DNA of 64,000 nt from Lingula anatina (lineage: Eukaryota > Animalia > Brachiopoda). This document shows positions 4,136 through 57,163 of the stretch, piece after piece. The position numbers and the translations under genes were made by a program. Numbering within the stretch: position 1 is the stretch's first letter; the number at the start of each line of letters is the position of its first letter. The notes beneath the pieces are model-generated. The model did not search any database and was not told where the DNA came from. It saw only the letters and a list, made by a program, of their open reading frames with translations. The DNA is taken from positions 7,006,001 through 7,070,000 of the forward strand of contig CM120646.1 of assembly GCA_051362555.1 (NCBI GenBank), written 5' to 3'.

Positions 4136-4535
4136 CATTATCCTAACCGCAGAGGTATTTTATGGATATTACCCACACGCTTTGGAATGCAGAGCCATAT
4201 ATCACTATATCGTAAGGTGGTTCACCACCTGCACATTTTATGTATGAATGGCATAACGTTTGCATTAAGAAATATAGAATACCAATAACATTTAAATATC
4301 CAGTTATTTTTTTCAAGAATACTCATTGCAAATGCTCTAGTATTTATTCTTCACTGATTATTAAGACGGTATAAACAAAGTAATCGTTAGCACATGTGTT
4401 AAAAGAACACTGTCATAAATTCGCGTCTCTTAATTACATGAACTGTATATTTCTTTTTATTCGTTTTAGATGTGTGACGTGATGACATTTGTAAGCAGCC
4501 TTGAGTCGTTTGTGTGGCGCTCAGTTTTAAAGAAT

Positions 4536-4597: not shown

Positions 4598-4934
4598 GTT
4601 TTAGCATAGCCAAAAAATATTATAACATTTTGTCCAAAACAAAACTGGCATAATTAAATTTGTATGATTAGATATTCAATTAACTGACTTTGCCGAATTG
4701 AATTCGGCAGCCATCGTAAGCTGTTCCACATCAATGATTATGTGTCGTTAAATGTTTAAACGTAATTTAGACTTTACAATTGATTTTTTGTGGAACATGC
4801 CAGACATGTCGTACAAAGTAACTATAACTGTTTTCGCGAGGTCAAAGGCCTTTTTTGCTACAGTTTAGATTTATGTTGCAGTTAACGCCTCATTCCAAAT
4901 GGACATTAAGAGTGCAAAGGTACTTAGCAAGGCC

Positions 4935-42119: not shown

Positions 42120-43100
42120 TATGCTGAATAAAGGGAAAAAAAACAGCATTACTTTTGTAAAAATAGTCCAATCATGCCAATTTTCAAACTTGACCTGCGT
42201 ATTATAAATATTCACCAGTTCTGTAAATTTCAATCCAAGGAAAGGAAAAACATTTTTACACTTATCATGTTATCGGTGTTATAAAAGTGCTGAAAAAATT
42301 GAAAAAAAAAAAAAAAAAAACAGGATAACTTCCATAAAAATTGCCCGATCTTGCTGATTTTCAAACTTGACCTGCGTATTATGAATATTCATTAGTTCTG
42401 TAAGTTTCAAGCCAAATGAAAAAACTGTTTTCCACTTATTGTGTTATCAGTGCTGCATATATGCTGAAAAAAGTGAAAAAACAGCATAAATTCCCTAACA
42501 ATAATCGAATCATGCTGATTTTCGAACTTGACTTGCGTATTATGAATATTTATCAGTTCTGCAAGTTTCAAGCCAAAAGGTAAATTGGTTTTCCACTTAT
42601 GGTGTTATCGGTGCTGCATATATGCTGAAAAAAAGTGAAAAAACAGCATAAATTCCCTAAAAATGACCCAATCATGCTGATTTTCGAACTTGACCTGTGT
42701 ATTATGAATATTAATCAGTTTTGTAAGTTTCAAGCCAAAAGGTAGAATGGTTTTCCACTTATCATGTTATCGGTGCTGCATATATGCTGAAAAAGTGAAA
42801 AAACAGCATAAATTCCCTAAAAATGGCCCAATCATGCCGATTTTCGAACTTGACCTGCATATTATGAATATTCATCAGTTCTGTAAGTTTCAAGTCAAAA
42901 GGTACAATGGTTTTCCACTTATCGTGTTATCCGTGCTGCATATATGTTGAAAAAAGTGAAAAAACAGCATAAATTCCCTAAGAGTGACCCGATCATGCTG
43001 ATTTTCGAACTTGACCTGCGTATTATGAATATTCATCAGTTCTGCAAGTTTCAAATCAAAAGGCAAAATGGTTTTCCACTTATCGTGTTATCGGTAAAAG
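42120..43100. repeat. Tandem satellite units of about 160 bp within the HINE
   Basis: TGCATATATGCTGAAAAA...TTCGAACTTGACCTGCG recurs at about 42455, 42615, 42778 and 42938. Confidence 0.9.
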
Positions 43101-43320
43101 TGCACGGCGACGGCGACGACGGCGACGACGGCGACAGCGACGACGGCGACGGCGACGACAGACGCAGATGATGGCTATATGTACAGACACATCTGTGTCT
43201 GTACATAAAAATACAACAGTCTCAGTCTCACAAAATGTCTTTCATGAAGTATAATTTGATTTCCACCAGTAAGTCCGCTTAGTGCTCAGCTATTTTAACA
43301 AACCTTACAAGGTATCCTAC

Positions 43321-43654: not shown

Positions 43655-46600
43655 ATGGCGGAATACCTCGCTTCGATTTTCGGCACAGAAAAAGACAAGT
43701 AAGTGGCATGCTTGGTGTCCTTGGATGTCAAAGGGACAGATTATAGACACTTTAGAATTTAAAGCATTAAATGCAGTGGAAGTCGCCTTATGCAATACCT
43801 TTATTTTTGGTAGAAATTATCCTTTACCTGTGCCGACTTGTAGGTCACAAAGGAGAAGGCATGGTTTTCGTATGAGAAATTTTGCTTGATGTCAGTGTAA
43901 CGAGTATTTCAGAATGGTTAGAGTTAATTGTTCTTTATTTTCACATATTTGTAAAAGGAGACGCTTGTGTTTGACTTAAAGTCCCGATAGTATTGGACCT
44001 TGCACTTGTTAAAAAAAAGCTTTGTTATGATGAAAAATGTATCGGTTATCGATTTTGCTGCTCGGCAGAGATGTGTTCATTGTCCATTCTTTCAACATGA
44101 AGTGTAGTTCTCTTTTTAGTAGAAGTTACAAAACAAATTTACATTTTTGCTCTTACATTTTTTCTCCATCGCAAAAAAAAATGACGCAGAGATATACAGC
44201 TGATTTGTTGGTGATCAATTAGCAAACATTTAGTTGGGTGATTTTATTCTGTTCAAGAATGTATTTTTTTTAAGAAGAACCTGTCTGACATTTATAAAGC
44301 AGTAAATTTGATAACCTTTCACATAAGTGCCTCTTATACAAGTAATTTGTTTTGAATATAATTTTCATGTTAAAGGTAGTCACCAAAATGGTAAGATACA
44401 CTCCAAAAACACATTTCAGTGGAAAAAAAAAAATAATAATGTTGATTTTGAAGCAGTTAAGTTGTACATTTCATGTTTAAAAACTATATAGTAACTTTTG
44501 TTGTCTTTAAGTTCTGGTTTAGATGTAATCTCAAGTTAAGAATTTTAAAAGAAAAAAAAAGAGCAGTGTCTTTTTCGATTTCTGTAGTTATTGATTTAGC
44601 TCAATTTGTACATGTTATGTCCTGTGGACTACATCATCACTGAAAGTTTAATATTATTTTGTAGAGTAAACTGCTCGTTTTACTTCAAGATAGGCGCATG
44701 CAAGCACGGCGAAAGGTGTTCCAGGTTACACAACAAGCCAACCTTCAGTCAGGTAAACTCACACTCAAGATTGTGCACACGATGCACAGGGTTACGACAT
44801 GTAGACTCCCTACATAAAAAAAAAGGTTTAAAACTTTCCAGGCTAGTGTCCTACAACTGTATTCTTTATATTCCAGAGTAAACTGCTCTTTTTACTTCAA
44901 GATTGGCGCATGCCGCCATGGAGAAAGATGTTCACGGTTGCATAACAAGCCAACTTTTAGCCAGGTAACCATAATTGATAAGTAGGGAGTCGCTTGTGTC
45001 CTCCGCGGCCTGCTACAATCAGGAGTAAGGTATTGTGGGTGGATCAAATGCCTGTTGATTTTTTCGTTTGTTAAATTGACAACTAATGCAATAATTTCTT
45101 TGACAGCTTTAATCTTCTGATTTGTAGCCCACAGAACACAATTTTGGTAGAATGAGAACGGGATGACCAATTAAGCAGGTTATTTTTTTGTAGAATTTCT
45201 TTTTCCATTCATTCTATTTATACAGACACAGGTCCGTATTGTAAGTTAACCTGTCACCTCACGTCACAAAGACGAAGCAGCAGTGTCCCCCAGGTTCAAA
45301 CTTTGAAGCTCAAACTCTCTTTGTTCTGTATTCTCTGTTTCAACAGGTACTTGTGCAGATACTCTCCTCAAAAGCAGTGTCCATATGCAGACTTGCTCAA
45401 AGAGAAGGCCATGAACATGGATCAGTATGGGAAGAATGACCTCTCCCCTGTCAACCTTATGAATTATACAGGATTTTTTATTTGTTATTCATTGATCTTT
45501 TCTCTATTTTATTTATTATTATAATTTTTTTTTCACATTAAAACCTCTGAAATTAAAATTTTTCTTGGATACATTGAGATTTCGTTCAGATATTGCTCTT
45601 TTTTATTTCCCTTTTGTTTTGATCTTTGAAAAAAATATTTGAAAAAAAAAATGCCAATTTAAGTAAACATTTTGAAAAAGAAAGTGCACCAACAATATTA
45701 AGATCACTGGGTTGCTCTATCCATGTGCCTGGTCTGGAATTTGACTTTCCCGTGCTCTGAATGTGGATACTGCATTTTGGTCAGAGTTGTGTGAGCCTTA
45801 TATTGTAGATCTGACCAATGAAACCTGGGAATGTCCGGCCCCAAAAGTGCATTAGCAGGGTGTTCTTAGACCCAACAGCCAATATTGTCGTGCCTTGAAT
45901 GCAGATACTTCTGAAAAATATGAAGAGTGGTTTGAGCCTTGCTTTGTAGATTTGACCAATGAATCCCCGGGTGCATATATGAAAGAATTATATTTTTTTA
46001 AACAACAGGACTCGTGTTCAACCAGTATTTATGGAATTGATTGTGTGATTGTCAGTTAATGGGTGCCATGTTTTCCTTTCTTTTATCAGACAATCCTGCT
46101 GGTGAATTTGTATCATAACCCACAGAATACAGCACAGACTGCTGATGGCTCACATAGTAAGTAGTGTGTAGACTTAAGAACTAATCTGGGCTTTTAATTC
46201 TCAATACTTTGCTCAGTTTATGTAGTAGTGAATCTGTTAGCGGAAACAAGTTTCTTTCACTTAGTGGAAGATGTAGATGATGATTCTGCAAAATAAATAA
46301 TTTATTCTGGACTGTAAGCAAGCAAATGTCTGTACATTTACACCATGGCAAGTGAGTAATGAGTCTGATATGAACATTAAAAGTATCCAGATTCCTGCCT
46401 TTCCTTGGACTAACTGGTTGTCTTGATTCATTTCAGCCAGTATCACAGATGTTGAAGTACAGGAACACTACGATGAGTTCTTTAATGAAGTATTCACAGA
46501 GGTCGAGGATAAGGTATGATATAAGGATTTTATAAATGCCGAGAACTTGAAAATTTTTTTGAGCATTTAACATTTTCTTTTGTAAATTGTTTTAAGTTCG

Positions 46601-48172
46601 ATTTAGGAGTTGGAAAAATTTAAAATTATCTGTTGTGTACAATATGGTAAGGAAAAAAACCCTGCAAGTGTTTGTTGTTTTGATAAAAACAAGTTAAATT
46701 TCTACCACAGTGATTGCTGCATTGTACTTAGCAGTAGAACTGGATTTTGACAGGATTTGAATAAGCAGAAAAGTTATTTTGTCACTATTTTACATGAACT
46801 TGTAGCTGGGGTTTTGCTTAAAGAGTATGTTTTTGATACCTTTCAGTATGGTGAAATTGAGGAAATGAATGTATGTGACAACCTAGGGGACCACTTAGTA
46901 GGCAATGTCTATGTCAAGGTGGGTCATGGGCTTTTTGTGACAACTTCACAAACATCACTTTATTCTAAAAATATAAAAAGTAATCAGTTATGGTTAAATT
47001 GTGGTGAAGTAGAGTTGTTTTTGTCTGTTGGGTAAATTTTGGTCAAAAAATTTTGAGTTTTTAGAAAGAAATATTGTGTAAGGTACTCTTGGAAATAAAA
47101 TTATTTTATCCATTTCAGTGACTTGAACTTGATTCAAGATTCATGTAGAAACTTGCATTTGTTTCTTGTATTTTCCTAGTTTCGTCGTGAAGAAGATGCA
47201 GAGAAGGCAGTGGCAGACCTGAACAATCGCTGGTTTAACGGTCAGCCTGTCCGAGCTGAACTCTCACCAGTCACAGACTTCCGTGAAGCTTGCTGTAGAC
47301 AGTATGAAATGGGGTGGGTGAACTTCACATCCAGTTTTTATTTTTATTTTTTCTTTCCTCTCTAATTTCCATTTTCCGTTTTATTAGGCGAATATTCTAA
47401 CCCATTTTGAGTAGAAATATTTTGAGAGAAAAGACAAAGATAATGTAGATGACTAGGTAGACGAGTGATAATGACAAAAAAAAGTTGATGAACCAAATGC
47501 CCTAAAATCCAAAGGATAAATTTTTGACGATTTTTGACATTGGTCAGCTGTGTCCACAAGCAATTTAATGGCCTGGAATAATCAACAGATTTCACACATT
47601 TCAGGGAGTGCACTAGAGGGGGCTTCTGCAATTTCATGCATTTGAAACCAATCTCCAGGGAGTTGAGACGGAAACTGTATGGGAGGCGGCGGCGTAGAAA
47701 CAGAGAAGTGGAGAAGATTTGTTCAGCAAAGTATGTACTATTTTTATTCTCATAGGGCCAATCTCCTGAAAAAAATAAAAGCAAATATTTAGATAGGAAG
47801 ACTTTTCTTATGAAGAATGATCTAAAATTATGTGTAACTTGGTAATTCTTTAGGTCAAACATTGCTTGAAATGCTTTTCTCTAGCTTTTGGTAAAGAATA
47901 GCTTGTAAGTCTTCTACTGAATGTTATCTGTAGTGTGACTAGTTACTAATACTTATGACAACAAGATTGGATTTATAGGCTTATATGCTTTTATTTTTTA
48001 TTTCAGGTCTCTTCCTTTTGACCAGTCCTCCCGTTCAAGGTCGCGCTCACCAGGGGGTCGTGGGGACAGGCGCAGTCGTAGTCGAGATCGTGACAGACAC
48101 AGAGACAGAAGTAGGAGTGGAAGTCGTGGGCGGGACCGACGTAGATCAAGAGAAAGATCAGGACGATTTTAA
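43655..48172 (+). CDS. U2AF1: Splicing factor U2AF 35-kDa subunit, 257 aa
   Basis: Exons 43655-43698, [44665-44752 or 44877-44964], 46090-46156, 46437-46513, 46847-46918, 47180-47313, 47605-47730, 48007-48172. [66 protein letters not shown] tail ending RERSGRF. Confidence 0.98.
44665..44752 (+). CDS. U2AF1: U2AF1 exon 2a (ZnF1, K28 variant)
   Basis: 88 nt with tag|...|gtaaac junctions. Encodes [29 protein letters not shown]. Confidence 0.88.
44877..44964 (+). CDS. U2AF1: U2AF1 exon 2b (ZnF1, canonical R28)
   Basis: 88 nt with ccag|...|gtaacc junctions. Encodes [29 protein letters not shown]. Confidence 0.92.
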
Positions 48173-54807: not shown

Positions 54808-55274
54808 GTTATAACGTTATTTTGTGTTTGTGATACTGACAGGCTACCTGTAACCCTGTGTATGAGATGTATAATGGAGACATAGGCCTATTGCTCTGCC
54901 TGTGTTTTCCAAACAGCTAGCAGGCCTATAGGCCCTATAGGCCTATACCGGTAATATGTGCACACAACAAGAATTACAATAATAAATAAATAAATAAATA
55001 AATAAATGAAAGTGTAAATGAGAATAACCTGTAGGCTATATTTTAAAGTTTTGAAAAAAGTATACATTGTGCTTATGATTCAAATTAAAAGATGCCAGCT
55101 AGGCCTACATTATAAAGAATTGCCAGTACTGGGTAACATAATATTTTTGTTTCCTTATTTATTCATTTTTTAAATTTATTTATTTATTTATTTATTTTTG
55201 TTGTTTTCTCTCTTTTGTTTTTCAGTTGTTCAGGATCAGAGTAAACAAGACTGGCACATCCTAGATAAACAACA

Positions 55275-57163
55275 ATGGTCATCTCATACATTCAAAATTT
55301 CTTTAGGATGATTTATCTCTTCGTGGTAGACATGTACAATTTCCCAGATTTACGTAGATACATGTTGACGGTATTTAGAAAGAGAATCTTTGAGAGGAAA
55401 CACGTTGATACTCGGACAATATACGATGATGAAGGTAACCCATTAAGATCGGCTTGCGTCAAGGGGAAGTTCGTCCCCGATTGGCCACTAGTAGTTGACA
55501 ATATCGACAATTACGACAAGTTCCACGCCCGCGGTGACGACATATGGATTGTAAACTGGCCAAAATCGGGTAAGAGCTTGTTTTGTGTTAATTGTAAAAA
55601 CATGGGTATATTAATACCGGTATTTCGCCAACGAAAGAAATTATAAGCACGCAGCAGAGTAAGGATATATCTTTTATTATTAATTTATTTTAAATTGAGA
55701 GCATTGTTTGAGAACTGTTTTACAGTTTTTTCAAAATATGCATTTTCAATATGGATTTGAAACGTCCTATACGAATGATGACAAAGTAAAACTTACTTAT
55801 AGGAAAACTTATTACTAGATAATTAAAAAAAAATGTTTTTATGCGTCAGGCACTCACTGGATGTTTGAAGTTGTTACGTGTCTGACTTCCGGCAAAGCAC
55901 AGCTTCATGACGGTATCAAAGAAAACACCATGTTCCCCGAGTTCTGTCCGGTGGATATTTTAGACGACATGACGTCACCAAGAATTTTAGACACGCATAT
56001 TCAGCTGGAGCTCTTCCCAGAAGAGGCACTGAAGACGTCGAAGATCATTTACACAGTCCGAAACCCCAAAGACGCCTTTGTGTCCGGTTACTTTCACTTG
56101 TCAAGAGATAATTTAGTGGGCTTCCGTGGTGGTTGGAATAATTTTTTCAGGACATCTATGAAAGAAATCAAAGGTGAAGGTTTGAAAAAAAATTTAACAA
56201 AGATATACTTTCCGTGTTCTATAAGCTATTCGATTTCCTTGCCACATTAAACTTATGTTGGTTTCTATTATTGATGAAAGTAATGATTTAGATTTGAAAC
56301 AAATTTAGATTTTGTTTGATGTTGACCAATTTGAACGTTCAGTTTTTATTTATTTTACTGTATTTATTTATTGTTTCTTTTTTTGATAGATAGACAATAA
56401 GTTGTCTGCATTTTTGCTACTTGCAGAGGTTCCATACGGCACGTGGTATGATCACGTGAGAGGGTATTTAGCTGCGCTCGAAAACAAACCGAACGCTCTT
56501 GTCGTCAAGTATGAAGACATGATAAAGGTAGTCAAACATTGCTTGGCGTGGATCACTGTATAGAAGTAAAATTTCTGACTGCTTGATAGCTTAAATTTCC
56601 GTGAATTTTGGCATATTGCATTCGCCGTTTTATTTCGTTCCTGCTTTTGTTTTTAAAAGGGACATTAAAAGCTTTGTAGAATAATTCATTTATTTATTTT
56701 AAGGTACCTTTTCCGCCTAGTTGTAGAATCATTTAAATGCTTCCAGGATCTCAAGAAAGAAGTACGCCGCATTGCAGAATTCATTGGCCACCAAAATTCC
56801 GAGGAGTTTTATGATGAAGTGGCAAGAGTGTGTTCCTTTGATCACATGCAGAAATCAAAGAAAGAACTGAAGATTATATGGAAGCCAGGAGGATCCATGT
56901 ACAGAAAAGGTAGACTGGACTGCCATCTATCGTCAACCATCAAAATAATTTGTTGTAAAAGGGTCATGCTGAACCGTTTTTGCGCTTAACTCAAAGTGCT
57001 AAACTGGGACAGTCGGCTACGTAAACGTGACTTTGCCAAATGGCCAAGGACATTTAACGAACGGTTATCCAAAATTTTGTTGACTTAATTGTATGGATTT
57101 TGTCACCCATTGCTGTAAAAAGACTGTACAGGAGATATCAGTTTCTTCTACTGGTATGGGCAC

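Follow-up and report, generated by a model that had tools for sequence, protein, structure and literature searches.

Why should an animal keep two versions of the exon with which its splicing machinery reads the end of an intron? The question is raised by the U2AF1 gene of the brachiopod Lingula anatina, in a 64-kb stretch of contig CM120646.1 (assembly GCA_051362555.1, positions 7,006,001 to 7,070,000, forward strand), which we call the window and within which all positions are counted. The product of U2AF1, U2AF35, reads the AG at intron ends, and single changes in its zinc finger 1 cause human blood cancers. Here the exon for this finger, exon 2, stands in two tandem copies (2a and 2b), and the encoded protein carries lysine or arginine at residue 28 depending on the copy used. 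We hold as near certain that the exon was duplicated, that both copies have been under selection, that they are spliced either-or in mRNA, that taking both or neither brings early stops, and that a related lingulid retains the arrangement.

The gene lies on the + strand, with its ATG at 43655 and a stop codon ending at 48172, and its introns are all GT-AG. Exon 1 is followed by 2a or 2b, and then by exons 3 to 8:

43655..43698, + strand: exon 1, coding part (codons 1-15, ending in phase 2); junction reads leave from 43698.
44665..44752, + strand: exon 2a, zinc finger 1 with Lys28 (codon 44702-44704); 194 reads join it to exon 1 and 285 to exon 3, in 5 runs; product identical to P0121.
44877..44964, + strand: exon 2b, zinc finger 1 with Arg28, the ancestral residue; 142 reads join it to exon 1 and 219 to exon 3; product identical to P0092.
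46090..46156, + strand: exon 3 (67 nt, single copy), the exon that vertebrates duplicated; from sequence and junction reads.
46437..48172, + strand: exons 4-8 (46437-46513, 46847-46918, 47180-47313, 47605-47730, 48007-48172), with the UHM/RRM, zinc finger 2 and the RS tail.

Both spliced products are letter-identical to RefSeq Lingula anatina U2AF35 isoforms, X1 (P0121, XP_013399964.1, Lys28) and X2 (P0092, XP_013399970.1), and the Lys28 and Arg28 forms are already present there as automatic gene models. The first-pass annotation of this DNA, made from the letters alone, had taken the host for a mollusc; the identity with named Lingula proteins makes it a lingulid brachiopod. The U2AF35 architecture was confirmed with Pfam (zf-CCCH twice, and RRM_1), and the protein matches U2AF23 structures at E 8e-13, with a residue numbering that equals the yeast protein's directly. 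A comparison with Rfam gave 0 matches at E<=1 within the gene, and hence no known non-coding RNA. RefSeq lists the Lys28 protein once more on another contig (XP_013397553.1), from a second locus or an uncollapsed haplotype.

The same annotation had described an old exon duplication under purifying selection, and our recount bore it out. The copies are 88 nt long, 124 nt apart and each flanked by AG and GT, and they share 73 of 88 nucleotides. Their 29 whole codons comprise 16 identical ones, 12 with synonymous differences and one, codon 28, in which the residue changes (AAG for Lys, CGC for Arg). Without gaps, the 60-nt flanks of the two copies agree at 23/60 and 20/60 positions, splice-site bases counted in, and therefore the introns are non-homologous past the splice sites. 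The proportions of synonymous and non-synonymous differences (pS 0.68, pN 0.036; Fisher p about 1e-8; pN/pS about 0.05) argue that the duplication is old and that selection has maintained both versions. An exon 2 profile search of the window found no further or decayed copy beyond 2a and 2b. Exons 3 and 4 are single, and exon 3 has no remnant in neighbouring introns. In the introns on either side, weak protein matches to exon 1, 3, 4 or 5 were rejected as exon remnants, being no better than shuffles at the DNA level (58-295 of 300). Weak donors were likewise dropped as a special trait: those of 2a and 2b have no G at +5, as in 13 of 32 distinct exon-2 donors of other organisms.

It had also been claimed that including both copies or neither would shift the frame, and this held. 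An mRNA with both meets a stop at codon 67, 495 nt ahead of the last junction, and an mRNA with neither meets one at codon 20, 460 nt ahead of it. Stops that far before the last junction make substrates of nonsense-mediated decay, and both kinds of mRNA are such substrates for this reason.

We examined splicing in five of nine raw RNA runs (X3, X5, X6, X9, X10), reading 6-26% of each; their tissues are unlabelled. For X3, X6 and X9 the target was the whole gene, with junctions counted as joints and exon skips listed from 3 reads upwards. For X5 and X10 the first four junction types were counted as loose read ends matching exon 1 or exon 3. Reads for exon 1 to 2a, exon 1 to 2b, 2a to exon 3, 2b to exon 3, and 2a to 2b were, in this order:

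X3: 76, 56, 124, 91 and 2.
X6: 8, 4, 10, 3 and 0.
X9: 15, 8, 14, 15 and 4.
X5: 78, 54, 104, 73 and 2.
X10: 17, 20, 33, 37 and 4.

Pooled, 194 and 142 reads join exon 1 to 2a and to 2b, 285 and 219 join these to exon 3, and 12 join 2a to 2b. Both exons were joined to exon 1 and exon 3 in 5/5 runs, no skip from exon 1 to exon 3 was listed in the three runs read over the whole gene (at the listing threshold of 3 reads), and no read fitted both copies. Thus 2a and 2b are homologous exons used mutually exclusively in mRNA, as the first-pass annotation had proposed, and neither copy is silent. The exclusion is not absolute: we rejected strict steric hindrance by a branch point near the 2a donor (motif 9 nt into the intron) because of the 12 reads that join 2a to 2b.

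The pair is also found in a related lingulid, organism A, known from two contigs (X1 and X2) whose origin from RNA is a guess, though spliced joins are present. In these contigs 2a and 2b are each spliced to exon 3. We infer that Lys28 is kept as well, because codon 28 has no listed change, although it is 49 nt or more inside the aligned piece and changes only 43 and 31 nt from an end were listed. Exons 2a and 2b together differ between Lingula and organism A at no more than 3 of 176 bases, and the seen pieces of exons 1 and 3 at 7 of 68 (rough p=0.006). Several intron stretches downstream of 2b are conserved too. The near-frozen synonymous sites of exon 2, together with these kept stretches, suggest constraint at the RNA level.

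To look further, we scanned metagenome contigs for an exon 2 preceded by an intron, which gave 99 loci. None of the 99 has a second whole exon 2; an 88-nt exon 2 with both exon 1 and exon 3 in view is limited to 21 of them (15 distinct exon sequences), and no locus is known to be brachiopod or phoronid. So far, the duplication appears specific to lingulids. Nine of the loci (L001, L013, L020, L025, L030, L043, L049, L061 and L062) have an extra short intron in mid exon 2, splitting zinc finger 1.

What could a change at residue 28 do? In the crystal structure of S. pombe U2AF1 with RNA, Arg28 lies stacked against -2A, the adenine of the AG, touches the 2'-OH of the -3U ribose and holds His29, which itself stacks on -3U (PMC7505975). 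The N6 of -2A is surrounded by Phe20, Cys27, Arg28 and Asn164, and N6-methyladenosine (m6A) at that base blocks binding (PMC7505975). In the yeast protein, R28S raises the dissociation constant nearly 10-fold and R32S has no effect (PMC4536312). The first-pass annotation was right to place the change in the RNA-reading zinc finger 1; it named S34 and gave too little weight to R28, which itself sandwiches -2A.

Residue 28 is arginine in 324 and lysine in 5 of 329 motif-bearing proteins (339 fetched), a count that is not an unbiased frequency, as three of the searches had Lys-bearing queries and 90% clusters can conceal isoforms. Arginine also stands there in 98 of the 99 metagenome loci. Apart from Lingula X1, the Lys28 proteins (P0182, P0220, P0334 and P0233) group inside one of two heterobranch snail paralogues (support 100/99). 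The remaining case is an intron-bearing animal locus, L027 (2504-2591), with a single exon 2 in view and exon 1 out of view. Lymnaea, Biomphalaria and Bradybaena have two U2AF1 genes each. On a tree with residue 28 masked, 4 changes are needed and at least 3 are forced by well-supported branches, so that Lys28 evidently arose at least three times; a single shared origin of all Lys28 forms was found in 0% of 200 bootstrap trees and was discarded. Judged from these sequences, Lys28 seems rare but recurrent, hence tolerated, and is perhaps favoured where a second copy exists.

How one copy is chosen may be written in the introns, where we predicted or located the following elements:

44609..44626, + strand: predicted upstream arm of stem A, pairing with the middle intron; would loop out 2a.
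44785..44813, + strand: predicted docking region in the 124-nt middle intron (stem A 44785-44803, stem B 44796-44813, shared 44796-44803; local hairpin 44799-44815).
44982..45000, + strand: downstream arm predicted for stem B, which would loop out 2b; inside the intron stretch 44978-45040 conserved in organism A (58/63 bases).
45297..45327, + strand: intron element conserved in organism A, complementary to 45918-45952.
45918..45952, + strand: intron element conserved in organism A, partner of 45297-45327.

Predicted stem A joins 44609-44626 to 44785-44803 across exon 2a (-19.7 kcal/mol), and nowhere in intron 1 does the middle intron find a better partner. Predicted stem B (44796-44813 with 44982-45000; -25.7 kcal/mol) brackets 2b and is the best non-self partner in the window of its downstream arm, an arm picked post hoc. 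The best duplex of flanking introns was equalled by 0/60 shuffles for 2a and 3/400 for 2b, against 5-59 of 60 for exons 3-7, and a repeat of the test gave 8/700 for 2a, 3/700 for 2b and 0/700 for both jointly. By these tests, complementary intron elements flank each copy above chance. Sequence variants in the animals of study P5 disrupt one base pair of stem A and close the loop, leaving the net energy as it was. We dropped an inverted match of 12 bases that links 44556-44567 with the beginning of 2b, since it is A-rich and has better partners elsewhere. Further downstream, 45297-45327 and 45918-45952 would pair at -20.6 kcal/mol (7/2000 shuffles as good; chosen from 44 pairs tested), which would cut the effective length of intron 2b-3 by about 590 nt. 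The same intron holds a 43-nt direct repeat (45783-45825 and 45924-45966, 84% identical), which overlaps the conserved element and has no Rfam match.

We favour the following explanation. Lingula U2AF1 splices in one of two old zinc-finger-1 exons, yielding a Lys28 or an Arg28 protein from comparable amounts of mRNA. The Lys28 form likely grips the adenine of the 3' splice site more loosely: lysine would keep the charge, but it has no flat guanidinium to stack on -2A and would not bond to His29 and the -3 ribose in the same way. By pairing with the middle intron, the upstream arm would loop out 2a and the downstream arm 2b, and nonsense-mediated decay likely clears mis-spliced RNA. Stricter and looser readers of the AG would then coexist in the cell, and the account allows for a tissue switch without requiring one. 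As a whole, this account seems to us somewhat probable. Its parts differ: that Lys28 shifts affinity and the preference at -3, as the S. pombe structure and mutant and the chemistry would have it, may well be true or false in equal measure, and we are evenly divided on whether intron pairing steers the choice between 2a and 2b. Decay of mis-spliced RNA could alone do much of the work.

Several observations weigh against this account. The presence of Lys28 in the U2AF1 sequences of other animals shows that it is tolerated, and it may be near neutral; lysine is a mild change, and our literature search on R28 variants found no binding or splicing assay of R28K. The share of 2a is not significantly heterogeneous over the five unlabelled runs (p=0.20 on the exon 3 side, 0.54 on the exon 1 side). 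Competition between the stems is partial: what A excludes is the outer helix of B (6 bp), not the inner one (10 bp). This inner helix has a probability of 1.0 in 3/3 fold windows containing it, and being compatible with A it would predict the skipping of both exons, which was not seen. The probability of stem A varies from 0.01 to 0.69 by fold window, the local hairpin at 44799-44815 overlaps both stems, and the folding of the whole region is ordinary (z -1.5 and -0.2).

Among the alternatives, the one that survives best says that the two proteins are near-equivalent and that the duplicate is kept as a slow, error-prone splicing dial limiting U2AF35's own level through retained introns, double inclusion, a cryptic acceptor and decay. 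The reads provide part of its case. Introns 1 and 2b-3 are selectively, partly retained and later introns are essentially readless: in X3, X6 and X9 the mean depth of intron 2b-3 was 1.4, 5.7 and 9.5 against about 441, 44 and 61 for exon 4, and that of later introns was 0.03, 0 and 0. This pattern excludes DNA contamination and marks a region slow to splice. A minor acceptor inside 2a adds to the errors:

44688..44690, + strand: minor acceptor inside exon 2a; exon 1 joined there meets a stop at codon 16 (19 reads, 4/5 runs).

Both this cryptic acceptor and double inclusion (the 12 reads joining 2a to 2b) give early stops. The near-frozen synonymous sites of both exons and the tolerance of Lys28 in other animals also fit such a dial, and vertebrate U2AF1 transcripts with both or neither of their alternative exons are decayed as well (PMC5224494). 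The dial leaves unexplained, however, why the sole residue change falls on a contact residue that is arginine in nearly all the proteins compared and is kept in organism A, and intron retention is below 1% in X3. We regard it as possible and on the whole rather unlikely.

Less likely still, in our judgement improbable, is a regulated switch in which tissues, stages or stresses flip R28 to K28 and reprogramme 3' splice-site choice. Its precedent is the control of vertebrate U2AF1a/b by mTOR (PMC6821156), and the share of 2a varies slightly between studies (P3 0.58, P4 0.77, P5 0.47; p=0.05). By run, though, the shares were 0.58 in X3, 0.59 in X5, 0.77 in X6, 0.48 in X9 and 0.47 in X10: no run is dominated by either exon, and the tuning by tissue or stage suggested in the first-pass annotation found no support in this range. 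The P5 animals also diverge genetically from the window, which confounds the study effect, and the comparison rests on the partly read, unlabelled runs described above. Double inclusion differed between studies too (8 against 99 reads, 8%, in P5; 4 against 392, 1%, in P3; p=0.0008), with P5 differing in sequence and library as well.

Finally, that one copy is a dead pseudo-exon, or that two alleles were misassembled in tandem, can be set aside: the Lys28 protein on a second contig (XP_013397553.1) does point to some redundancy of assembly, but both exons are spliced in every run, reads span the junction of 2a with 2b as well as the middle intron, no read fits both copies, and a synonymous divergence of 0.68 is far above allelic.

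Returning to the explanation that we favour, its closest known parallel is vertebrate U2AF35a/b, produced by two adjacent UHM exons of 67 nt, 3 and Ab, with seven residue differences and decay of transcripts that hold both or neither (PMC5224494). That duplication has been traced to jawed vertebrates (PMC4494069). Under the control of mTOR, the two isoforms prefer different splice sites (PMC6821156). Both cases concern the same gene and a tandemly duplicated exon, its length not divisible by 3, with one copy per mRNA and a premature stop from both or neither. In contrast, Lingula copies the 88-nt exon 2 with the RNA-reading zinc finger 1, and not the 67-nt exon 3 of the UHM; its pair differs at one residue instead of seven; and the vertebrate switch is regulated, whereas the 2a share in Lingula shows no significant variation. 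The origins are separate, in line with the first-pass claim of an independent event in a gene whose exon 3 is single.

As regards the pairing, exons 7a and 7b of human ATE1 are chosen by elements R1 and R4 that compete for R3 (PMC7797038), and related cases of competing pairing are Drosophila serpent and Dscam (PMC4691838; model in PMC6071210). The predicted Lingula layout would resemble these systems in having, around both copies, complementary elements that find their partner in the middle intron –the R1/R3/R4 arrangement of ATE1– and an extra long-range pair further downstream. It differs in being predicted from sequence and in the partial overlap of its stems (8 nt). As regards the residue, the likeness is to U2AF1 S34F/Y and S. 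pombe U2AF23 R28S, in each of which one residue is altered in the pocket of zinc finger 1 with which -3 and -2 are read (PMC7505975, PMC4536312). Those are disease or laboratory mutations, whereas the Lingula change is natural, conserved, conservative and delivered by splicing.

Other U2AF1 exons appear duplicated elsewhere. In molluscs, isoform pairs of a limpet, scallop, Gigantopelta, clam, octopus and oyster (P0336/P0285, P0274/P0289, P0053/P0049, P0032/P0031, P0166/P0067 and P0020/P0018) differ, in gene models only, by a homologous exon-4 block. The two exon-4 versions look like a mutually exclusive pair across molluscs. Models of Mytilus, Nucella, Mya and one Magallana contain both exon-4 versions consecutively. 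In the nemertean Lineus longissimus, isoforms X1 and X2 (P0081/P0082; gene models only) differ solely at residues 50-53; these lie within exon 3, and a duplication of that exon would produce such a pair. At the DNA level, two invertebrate U2AF1 loci have two AG-GT flanked, frame-compatible copies of exon 3, L080 (2804-2870, 3652-3718) and L076 (524-590, 1095-1167), and L080 also has two copies of exon 4 (4186-4268 and 4622-4698).

Convergent tandem-exon events are well known in general, and the main text of one account of them does not mention U2AF1 (PMC9741552). No published account of the Lingula exon-2 pair was found in the literature on U2AF1 duplicated exons, Lingula U2AF, mollusc or lophotrochozoan U2AF1, R28 variants, brachiopod splicing and alternative exons in the small subunit of U2AF, a search that mostly left out subscription papers; the MetazExp database (PMC8728262) may include the event unremarked.

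Elsewhere in the window, positions 42400-43170, upstream of the gene, hold repeated blocks ending in a CGACGG-type microsatellite, probably the remnant of a mobile element. Two open frames at 55269-56250 (+ strand) are candidate exons of a cytosolic sulfotransferase, which they resemble.

For lingulids, the pair is natural, conserved, used roughly half-and-half and different only at the residue that stacks on the adenine: a one-residue experiment in tuning how the 3' splice site is read. More speculatively, and we put this forward only tentatively, a Lys28 U2AF35 with a changed preference at -3, and perhaps a changed tolerance of m6A in the AG, would be picked by an RNA-structure switch as one of several independent exon duplications in animal U2AF1 –exon 2 in lingulids, exon 3 in vertebrates, a nemertean and another invertebrate, and exon 4 across molluscs– through which selection would repeatedly build a two-isoform U2AF35. 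The duplication of different U2AF1 exons in different phyla suggests that a two-isoform U2AF35 is a recurring solution and not a vertebrate peculiarity.
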